DNA from: Nibricoccus sp.
GTDB taxonomy: Bacteria > Verrucomicrobiota > Verrucomicrobiia > Opitutales > Opitutaceae
Assembly (NCBI GenBank): GCA_047602425.1
Contig: JASGHG010000001.1
Location: 864,001 to 928,000, forward strand
Direction: 5' to 3'
DNA length: 64,000 bases
Both the position numbers and the translations under genes were made by a program. The number at the start of each line of letters is the position of its first letter. Within the stretch, counting starts at the first letter, position 1. Positions 55,151 through 62,660 of the stretch are shown piece after piece. A model generated the notes under the pieces. It ran no database searches. It saw nothing but the letters and a program-made list of their open reading frames with translations, and was not told the origin of the DNA.

Positions 55151-56473
55151 TTACCCCGCCAACGCATCCAATGGACCTGTCCCGAGCGCGTCGAGCGGGC
55201 TCCGCACCCCCAGCCCCGGCTTTTGCATGACGTGTGTATAGATCTGCGTCGTCTCCACACTCTCGTGGCCCAGCAATTCTTGTACCGTGCGTATATCCGC
55301 GCCGCCCTCCAATAAATGCGTTGCAAAGGAATGTCGCAGCACATGCGGCGTCACCCGCTTGTCGATACCGGCACGTTGCGCCGCCAGCCGGATGGCATTC
55401 TGGAAAGTCCCATCCAGCACATGATGCCTTTTACGCAAGCCGCTCACCGGATCGGACATCGTTTCACGCGAGGGGAACAGCCACTGCCATTTCCAATCTT
55501 CACCTGCACGAGGATATTTCCTATCCAGCCCTTCGGGTAACCATACGCCCGGCAAATTGTTTTTCCTATCCTCCGCATGGAGCACCCGTAATCGAGCCAA
55601 GTGCTCGCGCAACTTGGCCTGTAGCGACTCCGGCAAAACCGTCAGCCGGTCTTTTTTTCCTTTGCCTGCATAAATCTGCAACTGGCCGCGTTCCAGATCC
55701 AAATGGTGCACACGCAGTCGCAACAGCTCCATAAGGCGCAAACCGCCGCCATAAGCTAATTCAGCCATCAAGCGCGTCGTCCCATTCAATTGCTCGAATA
55801 ACTTCAGACACTCTGCCTTCGACAACACCGTCGGAACTTTTTGCTTAGCTCGCGCCCGTCGAAAATCGAACTGCCCCAAATCGCGTTTTAATGCCTCTTG
55901 GATAAAAAACACCAAAGCGTTCAATGCCTGTTTTTGCGATGATGGGCTGGCCCGCTGCTCCACGGCCATCTTCGAAAGAAAAGCTGCCACATCGTCCCCA
56001 ACCGCAGCATAAGGCGACTTCGGTTTCATATGCTCAGCAAACAAACCAGCCCAACGCCGGTACGTCTGCTCCGTCCGCCACAAAAACCCTTTGCGCCTGA
56101 TCGCCGTGATCAAATCGCGCTCCCAATCCGCACCGCCCAGATCTTCCGCAGCCTTGGGCGCCTGCTCCTCCAACGGACGCTTCGCCCTGACCACCCGCGA
56201 CTCCTGCCCTCGTTTGAAAAACCATCTCAAACCTGCACGCAGGTCCTCCTCACGTCTTCCGGCTTGCAACTCCCGCTGCTGAATATACTCCTTGGCCAGC
56301 AAAATAGAAGCAGCAGCCTGGCGGGTTCGGCAAAAACCCAAGAAACCCATAATCGCCCGCTTGTAGGCAGCTTTGGTTTGCGCATCCAGTCCCTCTTCAA
56401 CCAGTACCGAGCCCCATTGCGGAAACGAAACAACCACCTCGTCGCGCCAAAAAGTCTCTCCTTGTAAAGCCAT
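55151..56473 (-). CDS. intI: Integron integrase with an N-terminal extension
   Basis: '[14 protein letters not shown]', IntI-specific patch '[26 protein letters not shown]', '[12 protein letters not shown]', 'LGH...TTQIYTH'. Confidence 0.96.
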
Positions 56474-56650: not shown

Positions 56651-57006
56651 GAAAAGCCCGCGATGATGTTGGTAAGAGGAGAGACTGTGGTGCCCGCGAT
56701 AGTTAAGAGAGAGTTGTTTGAGCCGAAGGATTGCCGAGGCGTAGGCGAGGCCGGTCGGCGGGAGAAGGGTTTTTGGAGTTTTGAGATTGTGTGCCGGTTT
56801 TGGGTGAGCGACGTGCGATCTTTCCGAGTCGGCGTTGTCGCTGGTGTGCCCGCCGCAGGTGTTCGGAGTTTATGGTCGAGTGGCGCCCGTTGGCTGAAGT
56901 CGATTCTGTTTGCCAGGAGAGAGGCGAACCAGCCATTAGAGCACAACGCCATGGCTTCATCCTTTTGTTTTGCCAACGCCGCTCATGGCGTGGCTCACTT
57001 CTAACG
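56645..57006 (+). other. Cassette 1, probably non-coding
   Basis: Bounded by the attI core and attC1; only ORFs that read through the attC. Confidence 0.65.
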
Positions 57007-57012
57007 TTAGCC
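56923..57012 (+). repeat. attC: attC1
   Basis: GGCGAAC...GAGC..GCCATG...CATGGC..GCTC...GTTAGCC. Confidence 0.88.
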
Positions 57013-57024
57013 AAGAAAGTAGAC

Positions 57025-57408
57025 ATGCCAAAGGTCGCTCGTTTTTCCGCTCGAGACTTCGGTGCATACGAAGATCACGCGCTTGTTGTCGGCTTTGCAC
57101 GCGACCAGAGTGATGAGGAAAGCGACGATGCATTGGTGCTTCAGCGCGCAAAAGAAACGGAAGAAGACTCGGGGATCTACGCCGAGATTCCACCTCAGCG
57201 ATTTGTTACCTTCGGCGGAGTGAAAGAAGCGCGATTAGCCCGCGATAGTTTTTCGGTAACTTTTGAGCCAGAAGCGACGGCTGAGCTTGATGGTATCGCT
57301 GCGATGCAGATTTCATTCTCGATGTCAGATGAAGATTTCAGCCAGATTCGGCAGATGCTTAGTCGTATATTTCGAGATCATGCGGGGTTCAAAATACAAA
57401 ACGGCTAA
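57025..57408 (+). CDS. Cassette 2: Imm10-like immunity protein
   Basis: 'LVVGFA...LVLQR...YAE..Q...FGG....L' pattern; stop codon lies inside R''. Confidence 0.6.
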   Translation: MPKVARFSARDFGAYEDHALVVGFARDQSDEESDDALVLQRAKETEEDSGIYAEIPPQRFVTFGGVKEARLARDSFSVTFEPEATAELDGIAAMQISFSMSDEDFSQIRQMLSRIFRDHAGFKIQNG

Positions 57409-57501
57409 CCAGGCGCTAGAGCGCAACGCCTATGTCCGTCACGCCGCGTGCGGGGCACGTGTCGCGCCGGCCACAGGCGTGGCTCACCTATAACGTTGGG
57501 C
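57403..57501 (+). repeat. attC: attC2
   Basis: GGCTAAC caggc GCTAGAGC...GCTCACC tataac GTTGGGC. Confidence 0.92.
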
Positions 57502-57514
57502 AAAGCAAAACACC

Positions 57515-57994
57515 ATGTCCTTACTTCAAACTGCATTCCTAGAAAGGTCCCGCGTTCCTGATCGTGCGAAGCTCGAAGAAGCTGTCCGTGTGCTCGGTTT
57601 CGATCTCGCTATCGACGAGTTTTATCAGCCGTTTGCTTGTTCGGGCTTTTTGCCATGCCTCCTGAAAGGCAAGAAGTCTGGCTTCGAGATTTACTTCGAG
57701 TCGCCGGACGAAGCATTGCAGAGTTTTCCACGCCTGAAAGAAGAAGTCGGAGGTAGAGATTGCGCGATTAGTTTTCGTTGGGGTGGCGACATGTTGGAGT
57801 GTGCCTGCGTGTTGATTGTGTCGGCTGCGTTGGCGAAAATTTTTGGCGCAGTGGTCCACTACCAAGACGACGATTTACTGTATTCTGCCGAACAGCTCGT
57901 TGAGGAAGCAAAGGGTGCGTTGCATGCGGCAGAGTCCTCGCCGCGTCGCCCTCCACCGCCTCCTCCGCCAAAGAAGCCTTGGTGGAAGTTCTAA
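57515..57994 (+). CDS. Cassette 3: hypothetical protein ending in poly-Pro-KKPWWKF
   Basis: Single ORF filling the cassette. Confidence 0.85.
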   Translation: MSLLQTAFLERSRVPDRAKLEEAVRVLGFDLAIDEFYQPFACSGFLPCLLKGKKSGFEIYFESPDEALQSFPRLKEEVGGRDCAISFRWGGDMLECACVLIVSAALAKIFGAVVHYQDDDLLYSAEQLVEEAKGALHAAESSPRRPPPPPPPKKPWWKF

Positions 57995-58010
57995 AAATGA
58001 AAACAACGGA

Positions 58011-58108
58011 GCCCAACCAGGCATACTGCCAACGCCTATGCTCGTCACGCCCGCTGCTGGCGCACCGGTCGCGCCGAGCACAGGCGCGGCAGATCTATAA
58101 CGTTGGGC
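58011..58108 (+). repeat. attC: attC3
   Basis: GCCCAAC...ATACTGCC...GGCAGAT...GTTGGGC. Confidence 0.92.
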
Positions 58109-58116
58109 GGAAGAAA

Positions 58117-58539
58117 ATGCTGAAGCTTGTATCTCTACTTCTCGGAATCGTTTTCTTCGCCGGCTTTGTAGTGGCCGCGTTGAGCCACAAAGACGGAGAG
58201 AGTTGGAAGCCTGTTCTTGGCGGAGCGTGGGGCTCCGTCGTGTTTGTGCTCGCTTACTTCAAACTGCGGAATCTTGAGCACTGGGAGCACTCGGACGATT
58301 TCAAGGAGGCGAAGCGTGAGTTCGCAGACCTCATCGATGTTGGTATGTCCACCGCCGAAGCAGAGCGCTTACTGCAAGAGCGCGCTCCGCTAGTGGACGT
58401 TTCAGATCGACGCTATTTTGGTGGGCGGTACCAGAACCGTAAATTCAGGGTGTCTGAGTTCGATGGCCGACTATCTCGGGTCAAAGTGCTGTCGCTCGAC
58501 GGCAAGGTTTTCGAGGTGCAATCAGAACCCAAAAGATGA
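58117..58539 (+). CDS. Cassette 4: 2-TM hypothetical protein
   Basis: ATG 9 nt after R'; two hydrophobic helices. Confidence 0.8.
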   Translation: MLKLVSLLLGIVFFAGFVVAALSHKDGESWKPVLGGAWGSVVFVLAYFKLRNLEHWEHSDDFKEAKREFADLIDVGMSTAEAERLLQERAPLVDVSDRRYFGGRYQNRKFRVSEFDGRLSRVKVLSLDGKVFEVQSEPKR

Positions 58540-58543
58540 AGAA

Positions 58544-58558
58544 GCCCAACCAGCCGCT
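58544..58558 (+). repeat. attC: attC4 left part (interrupted by the IS)
   Basis: GCCCAAC CAGCC GCT. Confidence 0.85.
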
Positions 58559-58728
58559 CCCCTTTAGGTAAAATCAAGGGGTAAGTTTGATTTTGCCGTC
58601 AGGGGGGGGAGGGGCGAGTCCGAGAATGGGCCTCCAGCTCGTCGGAGGACGAGCCCCGGGGGGGGTAGGATGTAGCAGGTGGTTTTGGTTACATGAGATG
58701 GATATGGTTTTGGCGCTTTAACCAGGAG

Positions 58729-58902
58729 CCCGGTCCTCCGCGACGATCCCCATGAGTTGGTCCAGCTTTTGCGGGCTGGCCCGGACGATACTTAAAGGGC
58801 GGTAAGACCGGGAGGCCCGCCGTCGGGGCTTTAAAACATACAGTTGAGCATCAGCGAGGCTGTGCGGAACGGCTGGTGGCCCTCAAGCGGCGGGTTTCCC
58901 GG
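58729..58902 (-). ncRNA. Predicted bridge/seek RNA with target- and donor-binding loops
   Basis: Two hairpins with internal loops carrying ACCAGCCGUUCC/CUGUAUG (target side) and AGUAUCGUCC/GGGGAU (donor side); RNA ends unknown. Confidence 0.75.
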
Positions 58903-58946
58903 AAAAGCAAAAGTTAATGTCGGCTAAAATAGATCAAGGAAGTGGT

Positions 58947-60212
58947 TTAGGCGGCGGAGCGGAAAACGCGCTTCGGGTCGAAGGGTTGGGGCGAGCGTTC
59001 CAGGCCGTGGAGCAGTTTGAGGAACTTGCGGGCGACCGCGGTCATGGCTTTGCCGCCGCACATGCCGGTGTCGCGTTTGGCGTGGTAGTATTGCCCGTAG
59101 AGTTGTCCGTGCACGACGCGTTTGAGGACGGCTTGGGCGAGGACGTGGCGCAGGCGGGCGCGGCCGCGTTTGGCTTGGCGGAGTTGGCCTTGCATGGTGC
59201 CGCTTTGGCGGGGCCGCAGGTTGAGCCCGCCGTAGCGCCAGAGTTGGCGCACGTGGGCAAAGTCCCGGAGCGGTCCGGTCTCGGCGAGGACACGGGCGAG
59301 CATGAAGGGGCTGATCAGGTCGGGATGGGCTTGCAGGCGGGTGGCGCCGCGGGCGCGCAGGCGTTCGACCAGGGCGATCATTTGCTGGCGGGTGTTGGTT
59401 CGGCGGGTGCGCAGCACGGTGAGTTCGGCAAAGAGGGCGCGCAGGTCCTCGGCGAGCAGGGCCAGCCAGTCGGGGTCGGAGTCGATCAGGGCGCAGCGCT
59501 GGGCGTCGGCGAAGAGTCGCTGGATGGTCTTTGGGCCAACGTGGTGGTTGCGCAGTTTGGCGGTGCAGCGTTCCAGGCCGTCGGCGAGGATCGCGGCGGC
59601 GTTCAGGCCGTAGAGTGCGATCGTGGCTTGGGCGGCGCGGCCTTCGAAGAGCCAGTCGTTTTTAAAGCTCAATTCGGGGAAGAGCGAGAGGAGCAGTTTA
59701 TGAATCCTGTTTTTACAGCGGGTGGAGTCGCGTTCGAGCCGGTCGTAGCGGGCGTTGAGTTCGCGCAGGAGCAGCCACTCGCCTTGGAGGGGACGATCGG
59801 TCAGGGTTTTGTTCCATTTGGCCAATAGTAAAATCGTGCGGGGATCTTTGATGTCGCTTTTGCCGGTATCGTTGTTCTCGACCACTTGCATCTGGTGGAC
59901 GGCTTCGCCGTTGACCAAGGCGGTGGCGCAGCCGAGTTGGCGGGCCGCGCGCAGCAGGCGCCGTTCGTATCCGCCGGTGGGTTCGCAGAGGATGCGCACG
60001 CCGCCAAGGCCGTGCTGGCGGGCGTGGGTGTTGAGTTGTTCCAGCCATGAGAGGATGGCCTCATTGCGATTGGCGATATGGCCTTGGTGCGCCTGGGCCC
60101 CGAGTTCACCGTACCAGTCCAGTGCTTTTTGCCCGACGTCGACGGCGATATCCCAGCGAGTTTCCGGTTGCCCGGAGTGCGTTCTGCCATTAAGTGCTTT
60201 GTTCGTTATCAT
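58947..60212 (-). CDS. IS110-family DEDD recombinase/transposase
   Basis: 'IAVDVGQ', 'CEPTGGY', 'KSDIKD', C-terminal 'YGGLNLRPRQSG'. Confidence 0.93.
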   Translation of the reverse strand: MITNKALNGRTHSGQPETRWDIAVDVGQKALDWYGELGAQAHQGHIANRNEAILSWLEQLNTHARQHGLGGVRILCEPTGGYERRLLRAARQLGCATALVNGEAVHQMQVVENNDTGKSDIKDPRTILLLAKWNKTLTDRPLQGEWLLLRELNARYDRLERDSTRCKNRIHKLLLSLFPELSFKNDWLFEGRAAQATIALYGLNAAAILADGLERCTAKLRNHHVGPKTIQRLFADAQRCALIDSDPDWLALLAEDLRALFAELTVLRTRRTNTRQQMIALVERLRARGATRLQAHPDLISPFMLARVLAETGPLRDFAHVRQLWRYGGLNLRPRQSGTMQGQLRQAKRGRARLRHVLAQAVLKRVVHGQLYGQYYHAKRDTGMCGGKAMTAVARKFLKLLHGLERSPQPFDPKRVFRSAA

Positions 60213-60317
60213 TGTTAGATTGCGGCTCCGGCTAAGGAGTGCCGGTTACGTGCTTGTCACCGTCTAGTCCGTGCCGGGGCCGCCCCTTATGTTACCTCAT
60301 CCGCCTATTAGTAGCAT

Positions 60318-60394
60318 ACAGCGCAATGCCTCGACGGGGTTCGCTTTGAGTTTGGAGTCGCCAGCTCGGCATGGCTGACCAGAGATCGTTAGGC
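60318..60394 (+). repeat. attC: attC4 right part
   Basis: ACAGC gcaATGCC...GGCATg GCTGACC agagatc GTTAGGC. Confidence 0.85.
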
Positions 60395-60400
60395 AAAAGT

Positions 60401-60706
60401 ATGGCCTTCCCGATTTACACGTTTCCCAGTCAGAAGTTCGAGGCGATTGAAGTGTGCCTTCGCACCGCTGGTTATAGCGTCGAGCAGTCTGGTCGGTCGT
60501 TACTGGTTCAGTCTGGTGCCGCACGAGCTCAGGTTTGCGACTATACGGAGGACGGTGATGCAGAAGTTCATTTCATCGTTCTTTTTCCGCACCGAGGTTT
60601 CTTTAGCTTTTTCGTGTTCTGGATCTCGGATGGCAGACTTGTCCGGAAGCTTTGGCGGCTCTTGAAGCAGCAGGGAGCTAAATATGTTGATCCTCGTAGA
60701 ATCTAA
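60401..60706 (+). CDS. Cassette 5: hypothetical protein (101 aa)
   Basis: ATG 7 nt after R'; stop just before R''. Confidence 0.8.
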   Translation: MAFPIYTFPSQKFEAIEVCLRTAGYSVEQSGRSLLVQSGAARAQVCDYTEDGDAEVHFIVLFPHRGFFSFFVFWISDGRLVRKLWRLLKQQGAKYVDPRRI

Positions 60707-60714
60707 AGAGCCGA

Positions 60715-62660
60715 ATCGGGTAGCCGGAGGTAATTAGCCTCCGGCCCCCACACCACCCGGCGTACGGGTCCGTACCGGGCGGTTCCGATCTGATTACGTC
60801 ACTTTCACCTTCGTCGCAGGAGGTTTATCCCTTGACGTTGGTTTGGCGGGTAATGATAGGCGATCCATTGGGTTTGCAGGTTGGGCACCCCTTGCTTCTG
60901 CAGCCATTCGTTGGTCAGCGCGGCTTGCACGATGCTGTTGCTGCTCATCCGCCAGCAGCCTTTGCGGCTGCGGCTGGCCAGATGCACTTCTTCTTTCTTC
61001 GCGCCAAGGCGCAGCAGGTTTCGCCGCCGTGTCGGCGCGCGTTTCCATTGTTTCCAGTAGCATTGCCGAACTCGGCGGCGTAGCCATTTATCCAGCTCGA
61101 GCACTTCGCGATACGTGTGGCTGATCCGGTAGTAGCCGATCCAGCCGTTGACGTAGCGGCTCAGGCTGCCGAGCCGGTGTTCCATCGACACGGCCCACGA
61201 GCGGCCGGTCAGTTCGCGCACTTTCGCGCGGAACTCTGCCTCGGCGGCTGGGCTCCAGCGGATTTGTTTCCGTTGGATCTGACAGCCGAGGAACGTGCAG
61301 TCGGCCAGCGGCGCGGCCCGGCTTTTGGCCGGGTTCACCGTGAGTTTTAACTTCTGTTCAACGAACTTCACGACATCGGCCATCACTTGTTCCGCTTTGG
61401 CGCGGCGCGGGACTACGATCAGGAAGTCGTCGGCGTAGCGCGCGAAGCGCAGGCGGCGCCGTTCCAGTTCACGGTCCAGCGGGGTGAGCATGATGTTGGC
61501 GAGCAGGGGCGACAAGGGTCCGCCTTGCGGCACGCCTTTGGTTGTTGGTTCTCGCTTTCCGTTCGGCAACACCACCCCGGCGCGCAGGTAGCGGCCGATC
61601 AGGCGCAGGACGTCCTTGTCCTTTACCTTCGCGGCCACGCGCGCCATAAGCAGGTCGTGGTCGACGTGATCGAAGAAGCTTTTCAGGTCGCAATCGACGG
61701 CGTGGGTGTTACCCTGTGCCGCGGCGTCCCGGATCGAGCGCAGCGCTTGATGGGCGTTGCGTCCGGTTCGGTAGGCGTGACTGTTTTCGCTGAACGTTTC
61801 CTCGAACACCCCGCTCAACTCTTGAGCGAGGGCTTGCTGGATGACCCGGTCCAGCACCGTGGGGATGCCCAGCGGGCGCTCGCCGCCGGTTTTCTTCGGG
61901 ATCGCCACCCGTCGCACGGGCGAGGGGCGGTAGGTCCCGTTCTGCAGTTTGGTGCGTACTTTTGTCCAGTGGGTTCGGATGAACGCGGGGAAGGCCGCGA
62001 TCGACATGGCGTCGATCCCGGGCGCTCCGCCGTTTTGCCGAACCTGCCGCCAGGCGGCATTGATGTTCGCCGGACTCAAGACACGTTCCCATTGTTCGCT
62101 ATGACTGCGGTCTTTCTCCGCCGCTAGGCTGCGCTCGTGGCCGGATTTGGCGTCCAGCGCCAGCTCCAGTTGGAAGCAGCCCGCGGTCTCCGCGGTCCCG
62201 ATCGGTTCGGTCCTTCGCGCGTGCGTGAGGCCTTCCGGGGCTTTCGGCGAGCCTTGTGGAAGGCGCTCGCTTACTCCCGGCTCGTTTCCCGCGCTACTAC
62301 GACTTCTGCTGACTGCTGCGCGTTCGCCGACACGGTTCCCCGTGGCGATGCGGGCTGGTTGCGTGTGCAACCGCCTGCTTGCCGCGCAGCTCTCCCTGGG
62401 TAAGGGACGTGACTTTCCCGACACAACCCCGGGCTTTACCTGTGACGCTGATACCCGGACTTCGTTCTGTGGTGCGCACTCGTCCGCGTCACCGGCCTTG
62501 TAACCCGTTCCTGTTCGTGGGCTCGTCGGTTTGACGCCAGCTTCTTTCCCACAGGGTCTCGCGACACCGCAGTTGCTTTTGTCTAATGCTTTTGGTTTAT
62601 CCATCGGTATCTTGCAGCGAGGACTTCCACCCCACCAGTTCACTCCCATGCCAGGCACAC
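60715..62660 (-). mobile_element. Group IIC-attC intron, 1946 nt
   Basis: 5' end GUGUG, 3' end ..ACCCGAU; short DV 'GAACCGCCCGGUACGGACCCGUACGCCGGGUGGUG' with CGC triad; DVI hairpin; splits R'' GCCGA|AC. Confidence 0.95.
60805..62160 (-). CDS. ltrA: Group II intron reverse transcriptase/maturase, no endonuclease domain (start uncertain)
   Basis: 'RPLGIPTVLDRVIQQA', 'GVPQGGPLSPLLANI', 'RYADD', domain X. Confidence 0.92.
   Translation of the reverse strand, partial: ALDAKSGHERSLAAEKDRSHSEQWERVLSPANINAAWRQVRQNGGAPGIDAMSIAAFPAFIRTHWTKVRTKLQNGTYRPSPVRRVAIPKKTGGERPLGIPTVLDRVIQQALAQELSGVFEETFSENSHAYRTGRNAHQALRSIRDAAAQGNTHAVDCDLKSFFDHVDHDLLMARVAAKVKDKDVLRLIGRYLRAGVVLPNGKREPTTKGVPQGGPLSPLLANIMLTPLDRELERRRLRFARYADDFLIVVPRRAKAEQVMADVVKFVEQKLKLTVNPAKSRAAPLADCTFLGCQIQRKQIRWSPAAEAEFRAKVRELTGRSWAVSMEHRLGSLSRYVNGWIGYYRISHTYREVLELDKWLRRRVRQCYWKQWKRAPTRRRNLLRLGAKKEEVHLASRSRKGCWRMSSNSIVQAALTNEWLQKQGVPNLQTQWIAYHYPPNQRQGINLLRRR

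Follow-up and report, generated by a model that had tools for sequence, protein, structure and literature searches.

We describe an insertion sequence of 1759 bp (58559-60317, minus strand) that interrupts an attC site of an integron on a verrucomicrobial chromosome; positions refer to the window, that is, the whole 64,000-nucleotide stretch of DNA that was analyzed. Very probably, this is an active, RNA-guided member of the IS110 family with an IS1111-type organization, guided by a bridge (long seek) RNA of about 190 nt that is encoded between the stop codon of the transposase gene and the right end of the element. A previous sequence-only reading of this DNA, in which every quoted string and coordinate was correct, had proposed a complete RNA-guided recombinase. 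Comparative sequence evidence supports that proposal on four counts: an intact enzyme, a conserved RNA structure, covariation of the predicted guides with both the flanks and the element ends, and additional copies that are specific for attC.

An Insertion Sequence within an Integron attC Site

The cassette array that contains the element is headed by an integron integrase gene, intI (55151-56473, minus strand), whose TIGR02249 score of 372 bits exceeds the cut-off of 265. Throughout this genome, attC repeats directly follow the stop codon of a cassette open reading frame (ORF) and consist of an R''-like box, an imperfect inverted partner, and an R' box. The interrupted attC begins right after the stop of the cassette ORF at 57979-58539. 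Its left part (58544-58558, plus strand) is made up of the R'' box GCCCAAC (58544-58550) and CAGCCGCT, as in 24 uninterrupted attC sites, while its right part (60318-60394, plus strand), recognized from the sequence and by comparison with empty sites, extends from ACAGCGCAATGCC through GGCATGGCTGACC to the R' box GTTAGGC (60388-60394). The R'' and R' boxes, the stops of the cassette ORFs, and the adjacent intI bear out the earlier suggestion that the insertion site is an integron attC. Four cassette-like ORFs tested at 56791-60706 matched no family (Pfam for three, NCBIfam for all four).

Nine copies of the element, with 97-100% DNA identity and, in each, an intact ORF (about 100% identity among them), occur in the genome, which is a single contig of 5.16 Mb. 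The ends were set by aligning the nine occupied sites with uninterrupted attC sites of the same genome. Empty sites read GCCnAACCAGsCGCT|A[C/G]AGCrCAACGCC, with the crossover at the bar, and this sequence yields the span of 58559-60317. End and target have one base in common (T58558/T60317 on the plus strand, A on the transposase strand), so that the boundary is ambiguous by that single base, and comparison of occupied with empty attC sites reveals no target duplication. A dinucleotide core like that of IS621 was considered and rejected because only one base is common to the ends and the empty sites.

All nine copies lie within attC sites, and all are oriented, with the right end adjoining R''. 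Sites of the ACAG subtype, which is the one matched by the 3' target guide described below, account for seven of the nine occupied sites versus four of the 24 empty ones (Fisher P = 0.002), most empty sites being AGAG; the remaining occupied sites are one AGAG and one ACTG. This pattern of occupancy supports the proposal that the element is aimed at one attC subtype.

Long cassette arrays are found in this genome at about 288-302 kb, 921-928 kb, and 5131-5145 kb. A second integrase gene (genome positions 5147048-5147989), also above the TIGR02249 cut-off, heads an array at 5.13-5.15 Mb that carries three more copies of the insertion sequence. The copy at genome positions 289152-292326 (L009 and L010) is split within the bridge-RNA gene, near the equivalent of window position 58787, by about 1.3 kb of other DNA, and the RNA covariance model described below still assigns it 95 bits.

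The element has 388 nt of noncoding DNA 3' of the transposase gene and 105 nt 5' of it. The best pair of end repeats is 15 nt long and 80% matched, at distances of 7 nt and 20 nt from the two ends; beyond that, the ends share just TAGG/CCTA, imperfectly extended and situated 9 and 6 nt away from the shared base. Judged by the end geometry of IS1111 elements (subterminal inverted repeats of about 7-17 bp with extensions of 6-7 bp on the left and 3 bp on the right), the inverted-repeat listing for the element contains no clear 11-13-bp subterminal repeat with 7/3-bp extensions. Near the right end, a run of G residues (CAGGGGGGGGAGGGG, 58600-58616) differs in length and sequence among the nine copies.

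A Divergent IS110-Family Transposase

The transposase (recombinase) gene (58947-60212, minus strand) encodes 421 amino acids with DEDD RuvC-like and Transposase_20 domains, both of which match their Pfam families above the cut-off (PF01548, E = 8e-16 and 58.6 bits; PF02371, E = 9.7e-14 and 52 bits). On the NCBIfam model NF033542, "IS110 family RNA-guided transposase," the protein reaches 110.5 bits against a cut-off of 140, which marks it as a divergent member of the family. Residues D25, E77, D120, D123, and S337 are invariant among 25 aligned homologs, and we take the D-E-D-D and Ser residues to be catalytic. In an alignment with the ISCro4 and IS621 chains, S337-G338 falls on their SG, although similarity to these solved chains is remote and is confined to the C-terminal domain (E of about 1e-5).

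The transposase was not detected in the 60 nearest genomes at E <= 1e-30, and a tblastn search of PLSDB (72,556 plasmids) gave no match with more than 30% identity over at least 80% of its length. Among the 510 matching records, the ten commonest genera, whose matches are annotated as IS110, IS116, or ISBth13, are Gram-positives and alphaproteobacteria, with no enterobacterial or pseudomonad genus among those ten.

A Predicted, Conserved Two-Unit RNA Downstream of the Transposase Gene

The predicted bridge/seek RNA gene (58722-58912, minus strand; 177 bits on the covariance model) comprises two stem/internal-loop/hairpin units inside a closing stem. The putative target-binding unit (58813-58894, minus strand) has an outer stem, CCCGCCG/CGGCGGG, a second stem, an internal loop, and an inner hairpin, CACAGC..GCUG.UG. 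The putative donor-binding unit (58729-58812, minus strand) has an outer stem, CCCGGUC/GACCGGG, a stem, ACCGC/GCGG, an internal loop, and an inner hairpin, CCAGC/GCUGG. Two such units 3' of the transposase gene had been read from the window alone; they are present both in the single-sequence fold and in a consensus fold of 11 sequences, and the same is true of the stems CCCGCCG/CGGCGGG, GGGC/GCCC, and CCCGGUC/GACCGGG and of both inner hairpins.

A search for related loci with the single transposase protein returned none, and the alignment of 25 homologs was used instead, with which 79 loci were fetched from genomes and 80 from metagenomes. The 3' region of the window element can be aligned for about 190 nt with those of 10 relatives whose proteins are 48-80% identical, and the consensus fold of the 11 has 44 pairs, 18 of which show compensatory changes. 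The covariance search set comprised the window and 99 loci, taken from the 118 loci that, of 139 with a readable gene end, remained after deduplication and had 240 nt or more of downstream sequence. Within these 100 sources, the model found 53 full-length RNA matches, every one of them on the transposase strand and directly 3' of the stop codon. In the resulting 53-member alignment, 91.1% of 2127 pair cells are paired, versus 31-42% when partners are slid, double changes are seen at 40 of the 44 pairs, and none of these measures is equaled in any of 500 shuffles; the alignment was fitted to the covariance model, which favors the structure, and the slid controls carry the same bias.

The main stems of both units are well kept. 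Helices 2-4, in the target unit, are 93-99% paired, with compensatory changes in 18 of 19 pairs; helices 6, 7, and 9, in the donor unit, are 92-95% paired, with compensatory changes in 16 of 17. By comparison, helices 5 and 8, which RNAalifold places inside the internal loops, are only 48.8% and 60.2% paired, versus 92-99% for the main stems, so that the loop strands are most plausibly unpaired. This agrees with the expectation, set out beforehand as a test, that the guides would be free in the consensus. Rfam has no family for the RNA region: the best hit is an unrelated small RNA (sRNA) at E = 2.5, and nearby there are only group II intron matches.

Further conserved hairpins, including a terminal one at 58559-58605, are located in the stretch (58559-58721) from the RNA gene to the right end.

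Loop 1 Tracks the Flanking DNA

Each strand of the first internal loop matches one junction of the element with its target. The putative 5' target guide, ACCAGCCGUUCC (58866-58877, minus strand), reads ggaacggctggt on the plus strand, which is the reverse complement of ACCAGCCGTTCC, and it matches the junction at 58549-58560 (ACCAGCCGCTCC) at 11 of 12 positions, a match that also appears among the inverted repeats, at 92%. It would pair with the transposase-sense strand GG-A-GCGGCTGGT, that is, with the last two nucleotides of the insertion sequence, the shared A, and nine nucleotides of attC flank reaching into R''. The putative 3' target guide, CUGUAUG (58837-58843, minus strand), is an exact 7-mer, its plus-strand form catacag being identical to 60315-60321. 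It has the same sense as CTGT (four flank nucleotides)-A-TG (the first two left-end nucleotides) and would pair with the opposite strand at 60315-60321; in this element, the left target guide covers only four flank bases. Both matches were found as first described. When the 388-nt region was shuffled 2000 times with dinucleotides preserved, the 11/12 match turned up 10 times and the exact 7-mer 8 times, but never both together.

Homologous loci provide a broader view of this relationship. Junctions were located by conserved motifs at the element ends, independently of the guides, and three wrong anchors were left in. At 23 of the 53 loci, the best match of the 9-nt 5' guide within 420 nt downstream falls exactly at the conserved terminus of the insertion sequence; for many of the remaining loci, the flanks are cut, or chance matches occur elsewhere. 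When the 3' strand of loop 1 is compared with the left flank, the mean longest common substring is 5.96 for a locus's own flank versus 3.65 for the flanks of others (46 unique pairs), and for the 5' strand and the right flank, the corresponding values are 5.08 and 3.77 (39 unique pairs). Neither value was reached in 5000 permutations (0/5000 each), counts that overstate independence because the loci are related; flanks, however, are not inherited with the element. Guide-target covariation in homologs, which had also been named as a test, is therefore seen on both flanks.

Individual loci exemplify the covariation. In L104, the 5' guide ACCAACUAC faces the right flank CGAGTTGGT, and the 3' guide CUGGAUG accompanies the left flank CTGGATG. 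On the right-flank side, L124 combines the 5' guide GUCUGAAAC with GTTTCAGGT, and L120 combines ..CAUGG.. with ..CATGG..; on the left-flank side, the 3' guides CAGCAUG of L143, CGUGCAUC of L115, and AACCCAUAA of L024 correspond to CAGCATG, CGTGCATC, and AACCCATAA, respectively. A comparable change is found among the copies of the present genome, where the single copy with a changed 5' guide (C41G) sits at a GCGCCTGG flank that fits the change.

The base next to the shared A is non-Watson-Crick in both right-hand guides (58866-58868 and 58783-58785), with U opposite G in the target guide and G opposite T in the donor guide, and the same base is also off in the L043 subfamily. It may represent a designed wobble at the crossover.

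Loop 2 Tracks the Ends of the Element

The second internal loop had been said to match the junction formed by the joined ends of the circularized element. The 3' part of this claim is clear. The putative 3' donor guide, GGGGAU (58746-58751, minus strand; the plus strand there is the reverse complement of GGGGAT), agrees in sense with the last four nucleotides of the right end, the shared A, and the first nucleotide of the left end. Across subfamilies, the last 4-5 right-end bases plus A recur in the 3' strand of loop 2, as GGGGA, AAAGA, GAGA, GAAGA, AGAGA, GATGA, and GGTA, and the agreement of this strand with the right-end terminus was reached in 0 of 5000 permutations. The 5' part of the claim is present but weak. 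The putative 5' donor guide, CCUUUAAGUAUCGUCC (58783-58798, minus strand), is partly complementary to the circle junction GG-A-TGCTACTAATAGG on the side of the left end; positions 58783-58792 are the reverse complement of AGTATCGTCC, and the match is 8/10, or 12/16 if extended. Unconvincing by itself, this match draws its support from covariation in homologs. The conserved AAGUAU of the 5' donor strand pairs with ATACT in most members, and the 5' strand compared with the left end gives a mean of 5.24 for a locus's own end and 4.15 across loci (0/5000 permutations). Since loop 2 and the ends are inherited together, what counts is that they remain matched even as each of them changes.

These results bear on a narrower reading, in which only the target unit is functional, the ends are recognized by the protein via subterminal repeats, and the second unit is structural. 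There is precedent for it, as an 82-nt short seekRNA alone supported movement of ISEc11 in the account of PMC11187229; moreover, the conserved TAGG/CCTA near both ends could be protein sites, and the weakness of the 5' donor match would be expected. We nevertheless regard this reading as very unlikely, given that the 3' strand of loop 2 follows the last 4-5 right-end bases through at least six end sequences, that neither donor test was equaled in 5000 permutations, and that the two-strand layout of loop 1 is repeated in loop 2.

Even less credence is due to the proposal that the conserved structure 3' of the gene acts in cis, as RNA or DNA (for mRNA stability, termination, or transposase binding), and that the protein reads attC sequence or fold, with the loop matches incidental: attC sites are indeed structured and recognized by proteins such as IntI, and several copies in this genome tolerate a guide mismatch (four of the nine have a C-C mismatch at the G/C flank position), but loop bases change with flank bases in L104, L124, L120, and L024 in a strand-specific register, wrong-strand controls for loop 1 reach the observed value in 184/5000 and 3801/5000 permutations versus 0/5000 for the true strands, and G-U pairs on the transposase strand, present in the stems of the 53-member alignment, fit RNA and not duplex DNA.

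In L118, at about 1590-1625, two copies of the 11-nt right-end terminus (CCTAAGAGAGA) lie about 14 nt from each other, which gives the impression of a duplicated end.

Proposed Mechanism

Under the RNA-guided reading that we prefer, loop 1 would read the target, which is the R''-proximal part of attC. To the right of the crossover, one DNA strand would be paired with the 5' strand of the loop; to the left, the other DNA strand would be paired with its 3' strand. Both target guides would include the shared A and run 1-3 nt into the insertion sequence; an extension of 2 nt into donor sequence had been described for the window, and overlap of this kind recurs in the homologs examined. Loop 2 would likewise use its two strands to read the junction at which the ends of the excised circle are joined. 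The circle would then be inserted in one orientation by recombination at the shared A, with the transposase gene antisense to the cassettes and without duplication. The order of strand exchange we can only infer. Counting against this reading are the imperfect pairing (the C-C mismatch in four of the nine copies, the non-Watson-Crick base beside the shared A, the short left target guide, and the 8/10 donor match), the NCBIfam score below its cut-off, and the failure to find a promoter- or terminator-like site at 58500-59150.

The RNA would be transcribed, probably with the transposase gene from a junction promoter, and then processed and bound by the protein. A candidate -35 box, TTGATT, was read from the sequence of the right end (58572-58577, minus strand), and once the element is circularized, it would sit 17 nt from TACTAA in the left end (60308-60313). 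TTGAnn is kept at the right-end -35 place in homologs. Across the joined ends, TTGATT-17 nt-TACTAA could form a putative junction promoter, of a kind that has been described for the family (PMC11187229). A search of 58500-59150 found no promoter- or terminator-like site, and a lack of separate signals flanking the RNA gene fits co-transcription with the transposase gene followed by processing. The terminal hairpin at 58559-58605 overlaps the candidate -35 box.

Relationship to Known Systems

Bridge or seek RNAs of IS110 and IS1111 elements were described in 2024 (PMC11187229, PMC11208160). In the work of Siddiquee et al. (PMC11187229), two elements of the IS1111 family, ISKpn4 and ISPst6, are directed to one end of attC, their transposases bind a seekRNA that is encoded 3' of the transposase gene and contains matches to the target, and the same was predicted for ISPa25. 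IS1111-type elements, as presented there, have the RNA 3' of the transposase gene, with the top-strand match first, and this RNA copurifies with the transposase and is needed for both excision and insertion. Durrant et al. (PMC11208160) report predicted bridge RNAs in 93% of the IS1111 elements in ISfinder.

The present element shares several features with ISKpn4, ISPst6, and ISPa25, the IS1111-attC group: oriented insertion at one end of attC, no target duplication, a guide RNA gene 3' of the transposase gene, and a top-strand-complementary segment 5' of the bottom-strand one. Both the IS1111-type guide order and the 3' location of the RNA are found here, the latter in all 53 matches. It appears to be set apart from that group, as judged by published descriptions, by a transposase of 421 amino acids versus the approximately 340 stated for IS1111, and also by its NCBIfam IS110 score below the cut-off, its apparent lack of a clear 11-13-bp subterminal repeat, and its host, a verrucomicrobial (Opitutales-like) chromosome. 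Attention to attC-targeting IS1111 elements is reportedly to be found in Tetu and Holmes (2008) and in Post and Hall (2009). The kind of element is already known, and the one reported here is a divergent newcomer to it, with a 421-aa transposase and only short end repeats.

Comparison with IS621 gives a similar picture of likeness at a distance. As set out in PMC11208160, the left guide of each loop in the IS621 bridge RNA is directed at the bottom strand and the right guide at the top strand, and the core is part of both. Like that RNA (structure entries 8wt6 and others), the RNA predicted here assigns target and donor to two separate internal loops, with two-strand guides that overlap a shared core, and the enzyme is likewise a DEDD plus Ser recombinase. 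However, the RNA lies in the right end and not in the left, the guide order within a loop is reversed, the core appears to be a single A and not the dinucleotide CT, and protein similarity is detectable in the C-terminal domain only (E = 3e-5).

A second type of attC specialist appears to lie in the same array. A group II intron (60720-62660, minus strand) occupies the next-but-one attC; its reverse transcriptase/maturase matches TIGR04416 with 376 bits, and there is a 122-bit match to RF02001 at 62405-62568. Read along the minus strand, GTGTGCC is the sequence that follows ...AGCGCCTGGT, and this places the 5' end of the intron at about position 62659. It looks like an intron of the group IIC-attC type, antisense to the cassettes like the insertion sequence. 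Group IIC-attC introns resemble the present element in being RNA-guided mobile elements specialized on attC, but they are ribozyme/reverse-transcriptase retroelements with an unrelated mechanism, and the intron in this array sits inside R'', about 8 nt from the point at which the insertion sequence enters such sites.

Wider Occurrence and Significance

Among the more distant relatives, sequence motifs are suggestive of attC targeting. With strict attC motifs, GTTRRRY is found in 15 of 39 right flanks, and RYYYAAC is found in 12 of 44 left flanks versus 1 of 44 in the control. Flank inverted repeats of at least 6 nt occur at 13 of 32 loci, versus 4 of 32 and 5 of 32 in two controls. The presence of GTT in 38 of 39 right flanks was discarded as evidence for attC because the right-end anchor itself required GTT or GGTC, which makes the argument circular.

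A more far-reaching interpretation is possible, and we offer it tentatively, leaning somewhat against it. The homologs could constitute a deep, unclassified clade of bridge recombinases, with transposases of 420-435 amino acids that fall below the curated IS110 score, short end repeats, a protein nearer to the IS110 type than to classical IS1111, and an RNA layout of the IS1111 type. Such a clade would be specialized on the attC sites of sedentary chromosomal integrons in Verrucomicrobiota, Desulfobacterota, Nitrospirota, and Bacteroidota, and it would have gained attC targeting independently of the clinical IS1111-attC group. If this is true, its members are a natural series of reprogrammed guide-target pairs that track variants of the host attC.

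The element opens no new mechanism. Its value lies in being a natural example of bridge-RNA targeting, with nine copies in one genome, 53 related RNAs, and visible covariation of guides with both target and donor. Both an environmental phylum and sedentary chromosomal integrons are represented, and in such integrons, elements of this sort interrupt attC sites and are able to lock cassette arrays in place or reorder them. Also, the homolog set amounts to natural reprogramming data, including guide positions that tolerate mismatches, and could inform the engineering of bridge recombinases.

Finally, L037, a clade member that has the RNA, comes from a 2.7-kb contig whose bin is assigned to a Halobacteriota archaeon; we think it likelier that a bacterial contig was placed in the wrong bin than that the host is archaeal.
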